A stretch of DNA of 14,079 nucleotides from a virus (lineage: Duplodnaviria; Heunggongvirae; Uroviricota; Caudoviricetes), in the IMG/VR virus record IMGVR_UViG_2728369593_000019, one strand, 5' to 3'. Below, piece by piece: positions 413 through 9,237 of this stretch; the stretch's first letter is position 1, and every line of letters starts with the position of its first letter. Made by a program: the position numbers and the translations under genes. A model generated the notes under the pieces. It was not told where the DNA came from and searched no databases. It saw only the letters and a program-made list of their open reading frames with translations.

Positions 413-570
413 AACATTTAAGCTGATGACCCCCACGCTTTTTATTGACCATTTTGCACGCAAACTGGAAAACCTGGCGTCGTCATCTATTCTTAAAGAG
501 CAAGGCAACTAAGCCTGCATTAATGCCAACTTTTAGCGCACGGCTCTCTCCCAAGAGCCATTTCCCTGGA

Positions 571-602
571 CCGAATACAGGAATCGTATTCGGTCTTTTT
601 TT
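571..602 (+). terminator. Second hairpin plus T-tract between host gene and integrase; may be part of the attL region
   Basis: Stem CCGAATAC (571-578) pairs with GTATTCGG (586-593) around a 7-nt loop, followed by a T-run at 594-602. Its 3' half plus T-run recurs at 670-686. Confidence 0.4.
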
Positions 603-636
603 AATTGTATTTAAAATCAATCAGTTGCAAACGTCT

Positions 637-2352: not shown

Positions 2353-2581
2353 GAACACCTCCATTATTATTTCCTGTGGTTCGTTTATTCCATCTTTCGA
2401 GCGCTTCTTTTTCACTTCCACCATAGCCAGTTCGAGATTCGCATCCGTTGCATTTTGCCCGGTAATATCCTGAAATGACTCTCACCGTTACTGATGGACA
2501 ACCACAAAAAGGGCATGGTTTAACTTTTGTGTATCGCACTGTTTTTTCTCCTGTGGGCTTTGTGGCTGCGCTCATTTCCAT
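2345..2581 (-). CDS. Lar/RalR-family restriction-alleviation protein (zinc-ribbon-like)
   Basis: 78-aa ORF with PCPFCGCPS...CNGCESRTG...ALERWNKRT, the Cys-pair pattern I associate with Lar (Rac RalR). Located just upstream of exo. Start overlaps the 3' end of exo by 10 nt. Confidence 0.65.
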
Positions 2582-3252
2582 TGCTCCCCAAATACAAAAC
2601 CAATTTCAGCCAGTGCCTCGTCCATTTTTTCGATGAACTCCGGCACCATCTCGTCAAAACTCGCCATGTACTTTTCATCCCGATTAACCACGACATAATG
2701 CAGGCCTTCACGCTTCATGCGTGGGTCATAGTTGGCAAAATACCAGGCATCTTTTCGCGTCACCCACATGCTGTACTGCACCTGGGCCATGTAAGCCGAC
2801 TTTATGGCCTCGAAACCACCGAGCCGGAACTTCATGAAATCCCGGGAGGTAAACGGGCATTTCAGCTCAAGGCCGTTGCCGTCACTGCATAAACCATCGG
2901 GAGAGCAGGCGGTGCGCATACTTTCGTCGCGATAGATGATCGGGGATTCAGTAACATTCACGCCGGAAGTGAACTCAAACAGGGCTCTGGCGTCGTTCTC
3001 GTACTGTTTTCCCCAGGCCAGCGCCTTAGCGTTAACTTCCGGAGCCACACCGGTGCAAACCTCGGCAAGCAGGGTGTGGAAGTAGGACATTTTCATGTCA
3101 GGCCATTTCTTTCCGGAGCGGGGTTTTGCTATCACGTTGTGAACTTCTGAAGCTGTGATGACGCCGAGCCGTAATTTGTGCCACGCATCATCCCCCTGCA
3201 CGATAGCTCTCACGTCGATCCCGGTACGCTGCAGGATAATGTCCGATGTCAT
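2572..3252 (-). CDS. exo: Lambda-type 5'-3' exonuclease (Red alpha)
   Basis: 226 aa, same length as lambda Exo. Sequence [65 protein letters not shown]... matches lambda Exo nearly residue for residue from memory. Start overlaps the bet stop. Confidence 0.95.
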
Positions 3253-4034
3253 ATTGCCACCTTCTGCTCTGCGGCTTTCTGTTTCAGGAATCCAAGAGCT
3301 TTCACTGCTTCGACCTGTTTCAGTTCTGACAATGCACGAATGTCGCGGCGAAATATCTGGGAACAGAGCGGCAATAAGTCGTCATCCCATGTTTTATCCA
3401 GGGCGATCAGCAGAGTGTTAATCTCCTGCATGGTTTCATCGTTAACCGGAGTGATGTCGCGTTCCGGCTGATGTTCTGCAGTGCATGCGGTATTTTCGAC
3501 AATGCGCTCGGCTTCATCCTTGTCATAGATACCAGCAAATCCGAAGGCCAGACGGGCACACTGAATCATGGCTTTATGCCGTAACATCCGTTTGGGATGC
3601 GACTGCCACGGTCCGATGATTTCTTTGCCTTCTCGGGTTTTGAATGGTTCGCGGCGGCACTCATCCATCCACTCGGTAACGCAGATCGGATGATTACGGT
3701 CCTTGCGGTAAATCCGGCATGTACATGATTCATTGTCCTGCTCAAAGTCCATGCCATCAAACTGCTGGTTTTCATTTATGATGCGGGACCAGCCATCAAC
3801 GCCCACCACCGGAACAATGCCGTTCTGCTTATCAGGGAAGGCGTAAATCTCTTTCGTCCACGGATTAAGTCCGTACTGGTTGGCGACGATCAGCAGCGCG
3901 ATGAATTGCGCATCGCTGGCATTACCTTTAAATGCCGTCTGGCGAAGAGTGGCGATCAGTTCCTGCGGGTCGACAGAATCCATGCCGACGCGTTCAGCCA
4001 GCTTCCCGGCCAGTGTTGCAAGTGCTGTACTCAT
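3249..4034 (-). CDS. bet: Lambda-type single-strand annealing protein Beta (Red beta)
   Basis: 261 aa, same length as lambda Bet. [27 protein letters not shown]...[16 protein letters not shown] matches lambda Bet from memory with a few substitutions. Confidence 0.95.
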
Positions 4035-4039
4035 TCGTT

Positions 4040-4339
4040 TTATACCTCTGAATCAATATCAACCTGGTGACGAGCAATGGTTTCAACCATGTACCGGATG
4101 TGCTCAGCCACGCGTTCCTGAAATTCAACATCGTCATCAAATGCGCGACTGATTGCCTGTTTGCTGGCACCGTGGCGTTGCAAATGGTCGATGCAGAGCG
4201 ATTCAAACAGGTGCTGGGGCAGACCTTTTTCCAGATCGTCCGCCAGTTCCGTTTCTTTTTCTTCGCGAACGATCTTCTGGTAGTGGCGTGACCATGCCAA
4301 CTCTTCAATGCGATCAAAAATTGGGCATGTGCTCATCAT
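4040..4339 (-). CDS. gam: Gam, RecBCD inhibitor (short GamS-like form)
   Basis: 99 aa. ...[45 protein letters not shown]...[32 protein letters not shown] matches the C-terminal ~98 aa of lambda Gam from memory. Lies directly upstream of bet. Confidence 0.9.
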
Positions 4340-4622
4340 CCGTTACCCCAAAATTTTCAAGTTTGTTTGCGATCATCATTGCAATATCCGGAATTAATGG
4401 CGCTGAGGCTATACCTGCAGGATTCGCACATAAACCGTAAACCGCCGCAATCACCACTTGTCTTTTCCAGTCGAGTTTTTCTAATGATGAAGCTGCTGCT
4501 TCGCCAGTTTCATCACTGCAATCGCGATGCGGATCGCTGCCAGCATTTTCATTGTGCTGATGTTCAGCACCTTCCATTTCCTCCGGATCTTTTTCCTGAG
4601 CTTCATCCAGATTTTCTTTCAT
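4314..4622 (-). CDS. Hypothetical protein (102 aa), acidic N-terminus and hydrophobic middle segment; sits where lambda has kil/cIII
   Basis: ATG at 4622. 3' end overlaps the gam start by 26 nt and 5' end overlaps the upstream gene by 20 nt, suggesting a coupled operon. N-terminal third is Asp/Glu-rich; middle segment [30 protein letters not shown] is hydrophobic. No family recognised. Confidence 0.5.
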
Positions 4623-5139
4623 TAAAGGTTTCCTGATACGTTGTGTCGCCCATCACCGCGCCACAATCAGGGCAGTTGCCCCCACCGCTCTGACCGCAGG
4701 CGGCACAGACTTTTTCCGGTTCCTGTTGTGCTACTGGTTCAGGTTGTTTCGTTTCTGGCTCGTTTTGTTGCGTATTTGGGCTGTTTTGTTCCGCTTTCTG
4801 GTCGTTCTGTTCCGTTTCTTGCTGGTTCTGGTTCACAGAATCGCGGGTTTCAATCCCCTTCACCCATTTCGGATCATTCGGATCGCTAATCCCTTCAACA
4901 AATTCACCACGTGATGCAGCAAGCAACTTATCGGCGTCAGGCTGGCTGATATTAGCTGCCTGCATAATTTTGCTTACTTCGTCAGCGGTGACTTTAACTT
5001 GGTGAGCAGAACTTACCTGCGGCTGAGCATCCAGCGGCTGCGTGTCCTGATGATGTTCAGTTGCATCCGGTTCCACTGTTTCAGCCGTTGCCTGTTCATC
5101 TGCCATTGCGCAAGATGGTTGCGGTTTTTTCTTCATCAT
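4603..5139 (-). CDS. Hypothetical acidic low-complexity protein with C-terminal CxxC...CxxC zinc-ribbon-like motif (up to 178 aa)
   Basis: ORF on the early-operon strand. Gln/Glu/Asn/Pro-rich repetitive segment, then C-terminal [17 protein letters not shown]. Start is uncertain: ATG at 5139 overlaps the upstream 409-aa gene, ATG at 5106 does not; neither has a strong ribosome-binding site. Confidence 0.5.
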
Positions 5140-6325
5140 CCTGTTTTTCTTCTTCTGTTACCCGCTGCGGCATCGGGGCAGAGGAGCGACCGCAGGCAAT
5201 ATCTACGATTTCCGGATCAGGGTTGGCATGATCGGTTTCAGTCAGTACTTTGTTCAGATATTCAGTGACGTGTGCGGGGATAACCTCGATCCCAATTGGT
5301 GCTTCTTTTACGGACGCAACCACGATGGCGCGGGAATAATCCAGCCCGCCAGGCATGGCGATGAATTTGTCGCGGAAAACAGAAAAGGGCGGTTTATTTT
5401 CAGCGATAATTTCCTCGACACGTTTAGCGTGTGCCGGATGAAGGTTATAAATGTCCACGTCCATTGAACGGGCCAGTACGCCAGTGGCTACATCGCGTGC
5501 CAGTGACGTCAGATCGTGGACGAAACCTTCGCCGCGATCGGTGAGGTTCCCGCCGCCAGCATTAGCACCGGAAGCCGTGCGAGTGATGCGTGAAACACGA
5601 TTTCCTTTCATCCACTCTTTTGTCAGCAGACCGCGATCGGTGTAGTCTGCGTCCAGGTATGCTTCGAAAAAAGCAGTCATCAGCCCCAGACTTGAATTGC
5701 CTGGATTAGGGAAAACTTTGTCAGTATCACGAACCAGTCTGTGAAGATCGCGAATCTCCAGCGGGTCGAGCAGGCTGGTTTTGTGGGAAACAGCCAGGGC
5801 AGTAACAGCTGGTAGTTCTTCAGCCCGTGCAATATGTAATGTCTGGAGTTCGTCGCGTGAAACGTGCGTTACCGGTTTTTCGCTGCCGTGTTGAGCAAGC
5901 CAGCGAATGGGCAGCTCTTGGCCAGAAATCGGGAGTAGCATATTCTCCTCAATCTCAGTCATGTCTTCGCCATTAACATTGGTATTGTCAGTGCTGGCTG
6001 GTTTGTCCTGCGCAGAGGATGAGGGCGCGATAAATACCATTGTGATGCCATCTTCCCCGCCTTTTTCGTAACGGTTGCAGAATTCCGTATCAAATACGCC
6101 TTCTGGTGGAAGGTCATCAACAACGGGCAAATTGACGCGAACAGGTTTTTTAAAGTCATCTTCATCGTAGCCAGCATCGTCAATCGCAACAGCACCACGG
6201 GAGATGGCAATGGATAATTTTTTCGCTTCAGCCCAGTAGAAACCGCCTTTAATACCGAGACGTTTTCTTACTTTGTCATTTTTTGCTTCGTAATACAGTG
6301 GGTAAACTTGTTTATCGGTGCTCAT
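5096..6325 (-). CDS. Large hypothetical early-operon cargo protein (409 aa); function unknown
   Basis: Long ORF with ATG at 6325 and a GAGGT ribosome-binding site about 13 nt upstream. Lies between the RacC-like gene and the acidic protein gene. Acidic C-terminal tail ([10 protein letters not shown]) and Gly-rich segment ([21 protein letters not shown]). I see no Walker A, HNH or CxxC motif and cannot assign a family. Confidence 0.75.
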
Positions 6326-6700: not shown

Positions 6701-6947
6701 GTTTTTCTCCTTAATTAAGGTTGAGCGAATCCCTGCCATTGCTGGCATAAATTCAGTTTCGGATAGTCAGTTAATTAAAGTTCGTGTGCCATCTGGTCTT
6801 TTTCGGCACAGATTTCACTACAATATTTTCTCAGTTCCGTCTGTTGATAAAACCCCACGCATGAAATGAAGCAGTCTTGCAATAACTTTGCTTTCTTCTA
6901 ACGTCTTTATTGCTAAAGGTGATAAGCACATTTTATTTTCTTAGTCA

Positions 6948-7169
6948 TTACCATGACTCCGCCTTTACAGGTAAACCATCACGACCGAGGAAGACTTTAA
7001 TCATGCAGTCAGAAATGCATGTTTTTGTAGTCAGGCTACGAATATAAAGTTTTCGCTTTTTAATATTGTTTGCCGAGGCGATATATGTCCGACCTTCATG
7101 AAGAACATAATCGCCAGGGGTCACACACTGACGTGGTATTTCATCAGTTCCGAAGTGATGAGCAATCAT
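6948..7169 (-). CDS. Small protein (73 aa), candidate Kil-family cell-division inhibitor (KilR-like), by position and length
   Basis: ATG at 7169 with a GGAGAT ribosome-binding site 4 nt upstream gives [14 protein letters not shown]..., 73 aa. It lies immediately downstream, on the same strand, of the DicF-like RNA, where Qin carries dicB and Rac carries kilR. Not similar to my memory of DicB. Confidence 0.55.
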
Positions 7170-7334
7170 AATTATCTCCATTTTTACAAATGAATTTTGT
7201 CGATGCGGTGCCTGGTGCCTCCAGGTGACGTTAACCAGTTAACAATTAACGCCGGATAATCCACCCATAACACTGATGATTTTAACTGTGCCGCGTGCGC
7301 TTAGCCGCATTCACCGCATCACAAAATTCACTTT

Positions 7335-7393
7335 AAAAAGGGGCGGCAGGGCAGCCACGGAGTAGAACTGATGCCGCTAAAGACTACACACAG
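7335..7393 (-). ncRNA. dicF: DicF-like small regulatory RNA (prophage sRNA that targets ftsZ mRNA in E. coli K-12)
   Basis: Minus strand reads ...TTTAGCGGCATCAGTTCTACTCCGTGGCTGCCCTGCCGCCCCTTTTT. This aligns with E. coli DicF as I recall it (TTTGGCGGTATCAGTTTTACTCCGTGACTGCTCTGCCGCCCTTTTT), including the 3' GC-rich terminator stem (GCGGCA with TGCCGC) and U-tail. The 5' end is approximate. Confidence 0.7.
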
Positions 7394-7569
7394 CAATGTC
7401 GTTATTTACAACCGGAGGCGCACTCCCACCATTTAAATTTAACAGACAAGACCGACTCTTTATGAATACCGGAAATGCGCCTTCGTGTTGTGCCCGGTTT
7501 TATTTCACCACCTCCGGGCTTTGGTGGTATCTTTACTGAAGTTCTCACACAACCAGTAAGGAAATGAAT

Positions 7570-7860
7570 ATGCCAACGTATCTCGCCAGAGTAGAACTAT
7601 ATAATGCTGAGCCAGAGGATTACGAAGGGCTTCATAAATATATGCTCTCACTAGGATTCAGGAGAACGATCCCCCATGGAGATGGTTCGTATAATCAACT
7701 CCCGGACGGAACTTATGTTTCCGAAAAGGGCGGTGATATTTATCAAATTCGCAGCCAGATATCTGACTATGCAGACCGACTATCCAGGTATCGCGCGTCT
7801 GTTTTTGTTTGCGAATTCAGTCAATGCGCATGGTATTTATACCCCGCCAAGACCCGGTGA
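7570..7860 (+). CDS. Lone plus-strand gene (96 aa), uncharacterised, convergent with the repressor-proximal early operon
   Basis: ORF track gives 7564..7860. The second ATG at 7570 has an AAGGA ribosome-binding site 7 nt upstream; the first ATG at 7564 is only 1 nt from it. Protein MPTYLARVELYNAEPEDYEGLHKYMLSLGFRRTI...: no signal peptide or transmembrane segment seen. Preceded by about 180 nt of non-coding sequence. Its 3' end overlaps the 3' end of the YdaG-like gene by 24 nt. Confidence 0.55.
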   Translation: MPTYLARVELYNAEPEDYEGLHKYMLSLGFRRTIPHGDGSYNQLPDGTYVSEKGGDIYQIRSQISDYADRLSRYRASVFVCEFSQCAWYLYPAKTR

Positions 7861-8040
7861 ATATCCTGCACGGCCTTCTGCTTTGTAGAAGGCTTCTTCG
7901 CTATCATAATCGCCAGATTCCAGTGCTTCTTTAGCCAGCCAGATGCGTGCCCCAGTGCCTGCATTTGGCTCCAGTTGCTGGAGGCGTTTTGCATCTTCCA
8001 GGAGTAGAGCGATAACGTGTTTTAATTCTGTCTCGTTCAT
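7837..8040 (-). CDS. Small protein (67 aa), YdaG/YdfB-like by position
   Basis: The track ORF starts at a GTG (8049). The first ATG at 8040 gives MNETELKHVIALLLEDAKRLQQLE... and overlaps the stop of the upstream YdaF-like gene. Second gene after the repressor on the leftward strand, as in Rac and Qin. Confidence 0.5.
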   Translation of the reverse strand: MNETELKHVIALLLEDAKRLQQLEPNAGTGARIWLAKEALESGDYDSEEAFYKAEGRAGYSPGLGGV

Positions 8041-8041
8041 T

Positions 8042-8197
8042 TTACTCACCTGAATGTCTTCCCAACCAACGACGTGCGCCAGCTTCGGTTTTAAACGTTT
8101 TGCTTTTGGTATACGTCATGGCGGTGAATGTGCCGTCCTGATTGGGAAACACGCCACATACCAGAGATTCGTTGTTGCCAAGATCGATAGTATCCAT
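8042..8197 (-). CDS. Small protein (51 aa), YdaF/YdfA-like (DUF1391-like)
   Basis: Internal ATG at 8197 with a GAGGT ribosome-binding site 7 nt upstream gives MDTIDLGNNESLVCGVFPNQDGTFTAMTYTKSKTFKTEAGARRWLGRHSGE, 51 aa. That is the length I recall for Rac YdaF and Qin YdfA, and it is the first gene leftward of the repressor. Confidence 0.6.
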   Translation of the reverse strand: MDTIDLGNNESLVCGVFPNQDGTFTAMTYTKSKTFKTEAGARRWLGRHSGE

Positions 8198-8381
8198 GTT
8201 GACCTCATTTCCCCTTAACGCCGGGTGGCGGAACGTTTTATCTACTGCGCTTTGTATCAATCAACAACTGCCGTCATGTTCGTATGCCTCAGGCTGGCTA
8301 CTTAGCCCTGTTCAGTGGCTGGATAACTCGAGGTATTGTCCTGCCGTTCTCTGGTGGGGCGTTGTTTGGATATGGCAAATG

Positions 8382-8420
8382 CTCACATATCGTGAGTGTT
8401 TTGTCAACTCAATATGTGAG
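8382..8420. promoter_or_regulatory. Candidate left operator pair: two TCAC-N5-GTGA-type inverted repeats in front of the leftward early genes
   Basis: CTCAC-ATATC-GTGAG at 8382-8396 is a perfect inverted repeat. CTCA-ATATG-TGAG at 8408-8420 is a near copy. Same half-site as the three sites between repressor and cro-like gene. A TTGACA hexamer on the minus strand lies between them. Confidence 0.45.
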
Positions 8421-8448
8421 CAATGTTGCTTTTGGATTTTTGATGGAC

Positions 8449-8482
8449 AAAAAAAGCCCTCGCTAATAGCGAGAGCTTTTTG
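8449..8482. terminator. Bidirectional rho-independent terminator downstream of the repressor gene
   Basis: A-run at 8449-8455, stem GCCCTCGC-TAATA-GCGAGAGC (7 of 8 bp paired), T-run at 8477-8481. Sits 26 nt beyond the repressor stop, so the minus-strand reading (U-tract from the A-run) ends the repressor transcript. Confidence 0.6.
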
Positions 8483-8507
8483 ATTGGAATCGAGGGAGAT
8501 TAAAGGC

Positions 8508-8897
8508 TTAGGAGGATTTTTTCTGTTGCCTGCTTCTTAGATATTTTTCCACATACTCATCAAGCTCTTGAAGACGGATTTCGAACAGATCAATCATGCG
8601 TGCTTGTTCCGATCCTGGGAGCTGATTAAACAGTTCTAGCATTTTTTTCTGGTTATCATTTAACCACGAGTAAGTGTTTTCCTGTTCACCGAACATTAAT
8701 TCTGCGGGGGAAATGCCTAGTACCTGGCCGAGGATGATCGCATCCTCAGCCCCCACACTCCTGGTGCCAGCTTCGTAGTTAGCAATACGAGAAGAACCTG
8801 ACCAACCACATAGTTTTGCCAGGTTTCCCATACTTAATCCTCGATTTAGGCGAGTGGCTTTTAGTCGCTCGCCTATTTGTTCTGCAATGGTTTTCAT
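8508..8897 (-). CDS. Prophage repressor, XRE-family helix-turn-helix, DicA/RacR type (no LexA-like S24 peptidase domain)
   Basis: ATG at 8897 with a GGAG ribosome-binding site gives about 129 aa: MKTIAEQIGERLKATRLNRGLSMGNLAKLCGWSGSSRIANYEAGTRSVGAEDAIILGQVLGISPAEL... (helix-turn-helix). C-terminal LELFNQLPGSEQARMIDLFEIRLQEL resembles DicA (LELFNALPESEQ...) as I recall it. Divergent from the cro-like gene. The track ORF extends to 9002 with no ribosome-binding site. Confidence 0.85.
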   Translation of the reverse strand: MKTIAEQIGERLKATRLNRGLSMGNLAKLCGWSGSSRIANYEAGTRSVGAEDAIILGQVLGISPAELMFGEQENTYSWLNDNQKKMLELFNQLPGSEQARMIDLFEIRLQELDEYVEKYLRSRQQKKSS

Positions 8898-8910
8898 AGC
8901 TCCGATTTTA

Positions 8911-8978
8911 TCACGATGTGTGAAATTAGCGGTACTCACGTATCTGTAGTTGATCTTGCTCACGAAATGTGAATAATA
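8911..8978. promoter_or_regulatory. Candidate right operator/promoter region: three TCAC-N5-GTGA-type sites at 25-bp spacing overlapping a rightward sigma70-like promoter
   Basis: TCAC-GATGT-GTGA at 8911-8923, TCAC-GTATC-TGTA at 8936-8948 (imperfect), TCAC-GAAAT-GTGA at 8961-8973. TTGATC at 8950-8955, 17-bp spacer, ATAATA at 8973-8978, oriented towards the cro-like gene. The third operator overlaps the spacer and -10. Confidence 0.55.
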
Positions 8979-8991
8979 GAAACAGGAGGTA

Positions 8992-9237
8992 ATGATGAAC
9001 AAAATTTCAACATATCGAAAACAGCTTGGGCTGTCTCAAAGACAACTTGCTGTTCAGTTAGGGTGGATACAAAGCCGACTGGCAAATTACGAAGCAAATT
9101 TTCGTACCCCTGGGCTAGAGGAGTGCAGAAAAATTGTTTCCACCCTTAATCGGCTTGGTGCTCATTGTGGACTTGACGATGTATTCCCCCCAGACGGTAA
9201 GCATAGCGAAAACAGCATAGGAGCGGTTGATTCATGA
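8992..9237 (+). CDS. Cro-like / YdaS-like helix-turn-helix regulator
   Basis: 81-aa ORF divergent from the repressor. KQLGLSQRQLAVQLGWIQSRLANYE is a helix-turn-helix. AGGAGG ribosome-binding site at 8984-8989; ATGs at 8992 and 8995, the second better spaced. Stop overlaps the next ATG (ATGA at 9234-9237). Confidence 0.75.
   Translation: MMNKISTYRKQLGLSQRQLAVQLGWIQSRLANYEANFRTPGLEECRKIVSTLNRLGAHCGLDDVFPPDGKHSENSIGAVDS

Follow-up and report, generated by a model that had tools for sequence, protein, structure and literature searches.

DicF is among the bacterial sRNAs that have been known longest, and multiple, divergent dicF-like prophage sequences have reportedly been known since the work of Faubladier and Bouché in 1994. 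The 53-nt DicF of the Qin prophage (K-12 b1574, Rfam family RF00039) arises by intrinsic termination and RNase E cleavage of an operon transcript, a 72-nt form is generated by RNase III cleavage, and DicF binds Hfq (PMC5069750; PMC9438474). DicF uses its 3' region for pairing with the ribosome binding site of ftsZ and its 5' end for pairing with xylR; in the 5' mutant DicF3 the repression of ftsZ is kept, but the regulation of xylR and pykA and most of the toxicity are lost (PMC5069750). Multiple dicF copies are present in EHEC prophages, according to PMC5069750 and to a passage of PMC7873438 that cites Melson and Kendall 2019.

Here we analysed a stretch of 14,079 nt from a Caudoviricetes record (IMG/VR IMGVR_UViG_2728369593_000019), referred to as the window, in which an earlier note made from the letters alone had proposed a DicF-like sRNA on the minus strand. 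This family assignment was confirmed when the whole window was scanned against 4227 Rfam families at their gathering thresholds. The DicF model RF00039 (gathering score 48 bits) matched at 7341-7392 on the minus strand over its full length (model positions 1-52 of 52) with 53.8 bits and an E-value of 1.2e-9 (1.6e-10 for the same match in a 1.8-kb sub-search); K-12 dicF, used as a control, reached 76.7 bits with this model. Four matches in the window passed the gathering thresholds, the other three being RalA, SraC/RyeA and SdsR/RyeB. A C and five U follow directly after the DicF match, at 7340-7335, and the minus-strand sequence of 7392-7335 is UGUGUGUAGUCUUUAGCGGCAUCAGUUCUACUCCGUGGCUGCCCUGCCGCCCCUUUUU. 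The span of 7335-7393 proposed earlier is correct to within one base; the length of 58 nt assumes a 5' end equivalent to that of K-12 DicF. Folded alone, the 58-mer has an energy of -13.9 kcal/mol (z -1.1), which is not exceptional, and the case therefore stands on homology and not on thermodynamics. A chance resemblance, for which nothing speaks except the shortness of the element, is practically ruled out by the E-value of 1.2e-9 with the full model, by approximately 200 nt with 89% identity to Qin and by the operon synteny. Judged by its sequence, the element is a true DicF relative, which belongs to a well-known family and is no new kind of element. In the RefSeq copies of the locus, including that of the near-identical O55:H7 DEC5A, kilR and ydaE are annotated and no RNA is annotated at the element.

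The window element shares with Qin DicF the hairpin, the U-tail and the ACUCCG loop, and the pairwise alignment to K-12 DicF agrees in all points with the earlier description of a core and terminator kept with few substitutions behind a divergent 5' end. From K-12 nt 13 on, five substitutions were found in the hairpin (G16A, U21C, U29C, A39G and U44C), of which U29C changes the loop that pairs with ftsZ and G16A changes the closing pair, and there is one additional C ahead of the U-run. With the sole exception of G16A, these substitutions are in unpaired positions or improve pairing (U21C converts U.G to C-G). Approximately half of the positions differ in the first 12 nt, where also one base is missing, and according to our blastn analysis the homology to Qin begins only at DicF nt 13. 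Instead of the approximately 12-nt seed for xylR and, as judged from DicF3, for other toxicity-related targets, the window element has UGUGUGUAGUC. This is the Rac-type arm (see also Table 1), which is also present in K-12 Rac, in phage Rac-SA53 and in many IMG/VR prophages.

The G+C-rich hairpin, which is followed by a U-run and located ahead of the toxic kilR, is by its sequence an intrinsic terminator. The parts of the DicF terminator are present (6-bp lower stem, CAG/CUG upper stem and CCC-UUUUU), with an outermost A.C pair that weakens it, and a consensus scan also detected a terminator-like site at the hairpin. Across 40 distinct family sequences, 98.7% of the stem cells are paired. One compensatory change in the lower stem, from C-G to U-A, occurs in five sequences, and this double change was probably a single event. 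The stem pairing supports the hairpin, but it cannot tell an sRNA from a terminator. The outermost pair is unpaired in only two of the 40 sequences, one of these two cases being the A of the window and DEC5A, and the G16A exchange is, as far as these sequences indicate, private to the window lineage. The class B consensus (see below) with G at this position reaches 61.6 bits, compared to 53.8 bits in the window, and folds with -17.0 compared to -13.9 kcal/mol. Since G16A leaves three C between the stem and only five U, a weaker terminator is to be expected.

Table 1. Coordinates of the DicF-family element, its parts and the neighbouring features in the window.
Feature	Position	Strand	Basis
DicF-family element: 5' single-stranded arm, terminator hairpin, C+U5 tail	7335-7392	-	RF00039; alignment to K-12 DicF
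'Rac type' 5' arm UGUGUGUAGUCUUUA, in place of the K-12 DicF seed UUUCUGGUGACGUUUG	7378-7392	-	blastn; arm shared by relatives
Outermost stem position, A at 7378 vs G in nearly all relatives (TTTAGCGG vs TTTGGCGG), A.C mismatch	7377-7378	-	cmscan 'v' mark
Hairpin: lower stem GCGGCA/UGCCGC, upper stem CAG/CUG, loop with anti-Shine-Dalgarno ACUCCG (7358-7363)	7343-7377	-	Rfam structure line; MFE fold
Structured leader, 22-bp closing helix (7312-7333 with 7188-7210) around three internal hairpins	7188-7334	-	MFE; RNAalifold
kilR (FtsZ/division inhibitor), first gene downstream of the element	6948-7169	-	RefSeq DEC5A locus 99.8% identical; phrog_294, E 1.1e-37
98-aa gene between the upstream operon genes and the element	7564-7860	+	phrog_8894, full length, E 3.8e-38
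DUF1391 gene (ydfA/ydaF homologue), first of the leftward operon	8042-8197	-	PF07151, E 1e-28
HTH repressor gene, dicA/racR position	8508-9002	-	Pfam HTH_31 and HTH_3; annotation of near-identical locus
cro-like HTH gene, divergent from the repressor gene	8992-9237	+	Pfam HTH; annotation

The window is a Rac-like lambdoid prophage at the ryeA/ryeB (sdsR) locus. SraC/RyeA (462-606, minus strand, 180 bits) and SdsR/RyeB (503-602, plus strand, 118 bits) were both matched at full length approximately 130 nt from the end of the integrase gene (734-1810). The same ryeA/ryeB junction was found at another IMG/VR locus (L161), which harbours another DicF-like variant. From left to right, the minus strand contains the genes for integrase and excisionase, ralR with RalA, the genes for a YqaJ-type exonuclease, RecT, Gam and an Exonuc_VIII fragment, and kilR. 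To the right of kilR are the element, the 98-aa gene, a phrog_30817 gene, the DUF1391 gene and the HTH repressor gene, all on the minus strand except for the 98-aa gene. Beyond the repressor gene, the divergent cro-like gene and the ydaT-like and replication genes are located on the plus strand. RalA, which serves as sRNA antitoxin in the type I system RalR/RalA, was matched at full length at 2168-2346 on the plus strand (214.5 bits). In addition to the DicF-like element, the window thus contains two more sRNA loci of prophage or host. The best public matches are E. coli FDAARGOS_946 and O55:H7 DEC5A (99.8% over 1 kb).

Repressor gene, DUF1391 gene, element, leader and division inhibitor gene follow each other in the same order as Qin dicA-ydfA-ydfB-ydfC-dicF-dicB, and the element has the operon position of DicF, in a lambdoid early operon after a ydfA-type gene and before the gene of a division inhibitor. 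The downstream gene is dicB in Qin and kilR in the window, and ydfB/ydfC are replaced in the window by the phrog_30817 gene and the phrog_8894 gene on the opposite strand. The kilR gene is intact, is located approximately 170 nt downstream of the element and belongs to phrog_294, described as 'Kil protein for bacterial septation inhibition'. According to blastn, the window is similar to Qin at 8038-8238 (ydfA, 88.7% DNA identity) and at 7189-7381, in a block that begins at DicF nt 13 and stops shortly ahead of dicB (89.1%). The similarity to K-12 Rac (90%) extends from 7531 down to 6900 and thus includes kilR, the element and approximately 140 nt on the upstream side of the element. On these comparisons the element is a mosaic, which is Qin dicF-like from the hairpin base onward, and of Rac type in the approximately 12-nt arm and everything upstream.

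The 98-aa gene occupies the position of sieB in K-12 Rac, has no Pfam match and is absent from the RefSeq annotation of O55:H7 DEC5A; it could represent a moron or a superinfection-exclusion-type gene. Two minus-strand ORFs with GTG starts (7402-7548 and 7505-7651, 48 aa each) are likewise absent from the RefSeq annotation of the near-identical locus. Downstream of kilR, ydaE (approximately 6775-6948, minus strand) has three single-base insertions in approximately 130 nt when compared to DEC5A and a premature TAG after 13 codons, meaning either a pseudogene or sequencing errors. The recombination module (2572-6325, minus strand) is mosaic, with lambda-type Gam (4040-4339), RecT (3249-4034) and YqaJ exonuclease (2572-3252), and the 409-aa ORF beside them contains only the Exonuc_VIII (RecE) domain at a place where DEC5A, in other respects the closest genome, has a full 3.1-kb recE. 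Further, a strong hairpin between an A-run and a U-run (AAAAAGCUCUCGCUAUUAGCGAGGGCUUU) was found at 8453-8543 on the minus strand, which overlaps the 3' end of the repressor ORF and reaches just past it. It looks like a bidirectional terminator and was the source of spurious sub-threshold Rfam matches (Atu_C9 and Leu_leader).

Between the U-run and kilR, a multi-branched leader of 147 nt is predicted (MFE -61 kcal/mol, z -5.24), which ends approximately 19 nt before the start codon of kilR and is 89% identical to the dicF-dicB spacer of Qin. A single base separates its closing helix from the U-run. For 18 diverse prophage leaders, RNAalifold predicted 45 pairs, and compensatory changes were seen at 8 of these. 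A cut 19 nt past the 53-nt end, as in the 72-nt form of DicF, falls in the 5' strand of the helix, and this would fit an RNase III substrate. The modelled leader is thus a likely substrate of RNase III, and it is also possible that it regulates the translation of kilR or dicB. The leader resembles STnc100/PasD (RF02076), with which it has the UCACCUGGAGGCACCAGGCACC hairpin block in common and a near-threshold score (44.4 bits at 7162-7351). However, this is below the gathering score of 47, and the likeness concerns the leader and not the DicF-like element. Relatives of the leader scored 30.8-46.2 bits with the same model, the highest value being that of L083, and canonical STnc100 copies have been described elsewhere in phages, such as downstream of stx2 (PMC12370729). 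Leader equivalents were noted at L003 1436-1609 and L002 1615-1794.

Three pattern scans were performed. Two of them covered IMG/VR, with the DicF loop and the Rac arm as anchors, and the third covered the genome collection with the downstream leader as anchor. Among the matches listed there were at least approximately 240 real loci with at least 55 distinct element sequences. Two 5' arms occur among the matches listed, the Qin type UUUCUGGUGACGUUU and the Rac type UGUGUGUAGUC(C/U)U. The hairpin tops are the DicF type with ACUCCG, the K-12 Rac type UUUUUUUCUUGAAGUUCGG, UUUAAUUGCUGG, UUUUUCUUAGUCAUUU and two E. albertii forms. Common to the elements are the lower stem GGCGG/CCGCC, the U5 run and the leader starting with AAAGUGAAUUUUGUGAUGCGGUG, with dicB or kilR downstream. 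Class A combines the Qin arm and the DicF-type top with dicB downstream (kil in phage Evi, 76.4 bits), and class B, to which the window belongs, combines the Rac arm and the DicF-type top with kilR. In class C (61.1 bits; IMG/VR loci L005, L023, L084, L156 and L230) the Rac arm is a patch of approximately 20 nt in Qin-type flanks, followed by a DicF-type top on the compensatory stem GGUGG/CCACC and by dicB. K-12 Rac and Rac-SA53 represent a class with Rac arm, Rac-type top and kilR (39-41 bits). The apical sequence with ACUCCG is identical in all of class B and nearly identical in class C despite the other flanks. Most Rac-type relatives, K-12 Rac and Rac-SA53 included, have a wholly different loop without ACUCCG, suggesting that the part conserved in the whole family is the terminator with the leader and not the ftsZ-pairing loop. 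At L005 and at the S. flexneri locus L257, isrK and C4 antisense RNA matches were found a few hundred bases downstream.

The homologue in K-12 Rac (L002 1559-1614, at approximately 1418.4 kb in NC_000913-type coordinates) is located between sieB and kilR, is unannotated and scores 39.1 bits; a homologue of this form is also present in the active phage Rac-SA53 and scores 41.1 bits. Both share with the window the arm, the upstream flank, the lower stem, the U-run, the leader and kilR, with 90% DNA identity over 630 bp. However, in the K-12 Rac and Rac-SA53 copies the hairpin is perfect and longer, the loop is unrelated and lacks ACUCCG, and the score is below the gathering score, whereas the window has the DicF-type top.

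The window type is rare. Its 58-mer was found with at least 99% identity in 8 of 5426 complete E. coli genomes and with 95-99% identity in a further 77 (85 in all). Canonical DicF (at least 95% identity) is present in 3971 of these genomes, at up to 7 places per genome, and the wider 151-nt region has homologues in 4417 genomes. EHEC prophages (CP-933, Sp) resemble the lambdoid prophages studied here in harbouring several dicF copies per genome in different gene contexts. The EHEC copies were, however, chosen as being more than 99% identical to K-12 dicF, whereas the window type is a divergent subclass with a swapped arm. The region also occurs in the temperate phages Rac-SA53, Evi, mEp460_ev081 and Tritos (annotated as DicF there) and in PPompW/Stx2a phages. 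In the sequenced phage Evi, canonical DicF is directly upstream of a Kil gene, which suggests that the DicF-Kil pairing is recurrent. The leader-anchored 17-mer, which is too short an anchor for 596 Gb of contigs, gave at least 120 matches; the real loci among the matches listed belong to Escherichia (coli, albertii and ruysiae) and Shigella, and most of the matches listed were due to chance.

It had also been suggested that the divergent 5' end may matter for target pairing. Our predictions support this for xylR-type targets, but not for ftsZ. The K-12 arm forms 12 contiguous pairs with xylR +7..+20 (-16.7 kcal/mol, z -3.0), in agreement with the published site in the first ten codons. With the window arm this pairing is lost in silico (-7.1 kcal/mol, z +1.0), and the 5' seed of DicF is in this respect absent from the window element. 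The pairing of manX +33..+59 with the 3' strand of the stem is also weaker in the window (-28.2 kcal/mol, z -0.2) than in K-12 (-33.9 kcal/mol, z -2.7), the duplex being interrupted by A39G and U44C. In the loop, ACUCCG and the flanking GUU.U are retained, complementary to GGAG of ftsZ, and U29C adds one more mismatch in the K-12 register. Since this loop is retained, the divergent arm should leave the pairing with ftsZ unaffected. On sub-regions, RNAduplex energies for the pairing with ftsZ were -18.9 kcal/mol for the window, -14.3 kcal/mol for K-12 and -11.9 kcal/mol for K-12 Rac. The cofold ddG was -11.1 for K-12 and -8.2 for the window with a shuffle mean of approximately -10.5 to -11, and for no variant was it separated from shuffled sequences. 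Since the cofold ddG was no better than that of shuffles, a thermodynamic proof of ftsZ pairing was dropped; the energies do not discriminate, and the ftsZ claim therefore stands on the conserved nucleotides. The search for cis targets of the Rac-type arm inside the window gave a single match, the arm's own complement.

A consensus scan of the minus strand at 7393-8600 revealed no sigma-70-like promoter. An independent gene with its own promoter was therefore rejected, and the element was treated as operon-internal, like Qin dicF. Without an own promoter, its production would depend on a long transcript that crosses approximately 650 nt of antisense, untranslated RNA opposite the 98-aa gene. 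It was shown that kilR is silenced by Rho and NusG (PMC12482147), and by extension the antisense stretch of approximately 650 nt is probably terminated by Rho. These points count against a working sRNA at this locus, and so do the private G16A exchange, the disrupted ydaE and the family-wide conservation of terminator and leader in place of the ftsZ-pairing loop.

Taken together, the locus is probably best explained by a DicF-family element in the leftward operon, which would serve as a kilR-insulating terminator and, on derepression, as the source of an ftsZ-repressing sRNA. We infer expression, processing and repression of ftsZ for the window element from its relatives as follows. By homology with Qin, transcripts of the derepressed operon would be terminated at the hairpin and cleaved upstream by RNase E, giving an sRNA of approximately 55-60 nt that binds Hfq. 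In read-through transcripts, RNase III would cleave within the 22-bp helix after the U-run, resulting in a longer form, as in Qin. The retained loop GUUCUACUCCG would pair with the Shine-Dalgarno region of ftsZ and repress FtsZ synthesis. One operon would in this way attack division twice, at the RNA level by the sRNA and at the protein level by KilR. As predicted from the in-silico pairing, the swapped arm without xylR pairing and the weakened manX pairing would result in a regulon unlike that of K-12 DicF.

A different and rather unlikely explanation is that the element is purely an intrinsic terminator and insulator before kilR, with a likeness to DicF due to shared terminator ancestry and no consequential trans-acting RNA. 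It would account for the invariant stem, U-run and leader in the whole family, in which the tops are freely exchanged and at least five unrelated loops occur, and for K-12 Rac and Rac-SA53 copies without an anti-Shine-Dalgarno loop; the finding of no own promoter and the silencing of kilR at the level of transcription termination (PMC12482147) also point in this direction. However, the same terminator generates the functional 53-nt DicF in Qin (PMC9438474), so that the two roles are not alternatives. Further, given the free loop variation, this explanation leaves it unexplained that classes A, B and C, with their different arms and flanks, have all kept an intact DicF-type loop. That the element is a decaying, non-functional relic, a former DicF variant providing neither efficient termination nor a useful RNA, is very unlikely in our opinion, since the stem has retained six G-C-rich pairs, the U-run is in place, the Rfam threshold is exceeded even so, kilR itself is intact, and the sequence is kept with at least 99% identity in 8 complete genomes and as a subclass in 85. 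Decay would be consistent with G16A, which breaks the closing pair at a cost of approximately 8 bits and 3 kcal/mol in comparison to the class B consensus, and with the RecE N-terminal fragment beside the lambda-type Gam/RecT/YqaJ module. The disruption of ydaE beside kilR, with three single-base insertions and a premature stop, would also mean that this prophage copy is decaying.

Going beyond the probable combination of insulating terminator and ftsZ-repressing sRNA, one may speculate that the Rac-type arm UGUGUGUAGUC is a second functional seed, and that DicF-like elements are sRNAs of modular build, with recombination between prophages reshuffling their two seeds and several hairpin tops. 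We consider this an unlikely idea, which is suggested by the class C arm, a patch of approximately 20 nt with Qin-type sequence on both sides and dicB downstream. The conservation of the arm in the set anchored on the Rac arm was discarded as an argument, since the search pattern itself demanded TGTAGTC; unbiased for the arm are only the loop-anchored and the leader-anchored scans. If the idea were true, the window type would be an isoform that keeps the repression of ftsZ alongside KilR from the same operon, and other targets would have taken the place of the 5' regulon that in K-12 DicF is linked to metabolism and toxicity.

The practical point of these observations is annotation, and the current understanding of such sRNAs is unchanged. 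Two modest additions can be made, namely the modular reshuffling of arms and loops and the unannotated, sub-threshold homologue in K-12 Rac. The toxicity of DicF depends on its 5' region and not on the repression of ftsZ (PMC5069750), and a natural variant with the ftsZ-pairing loop and another arm is a ready allele for separating the functions of DicF. The location of the element ahead of kilR also suggests that a single operon enables Rac-like prophages to act against FtsZ in two ways. Last but not least, since the K-12 Rac homologue is under the Rfam threshold, the DicF family is larger and more mosaic than genome annotations suggest.
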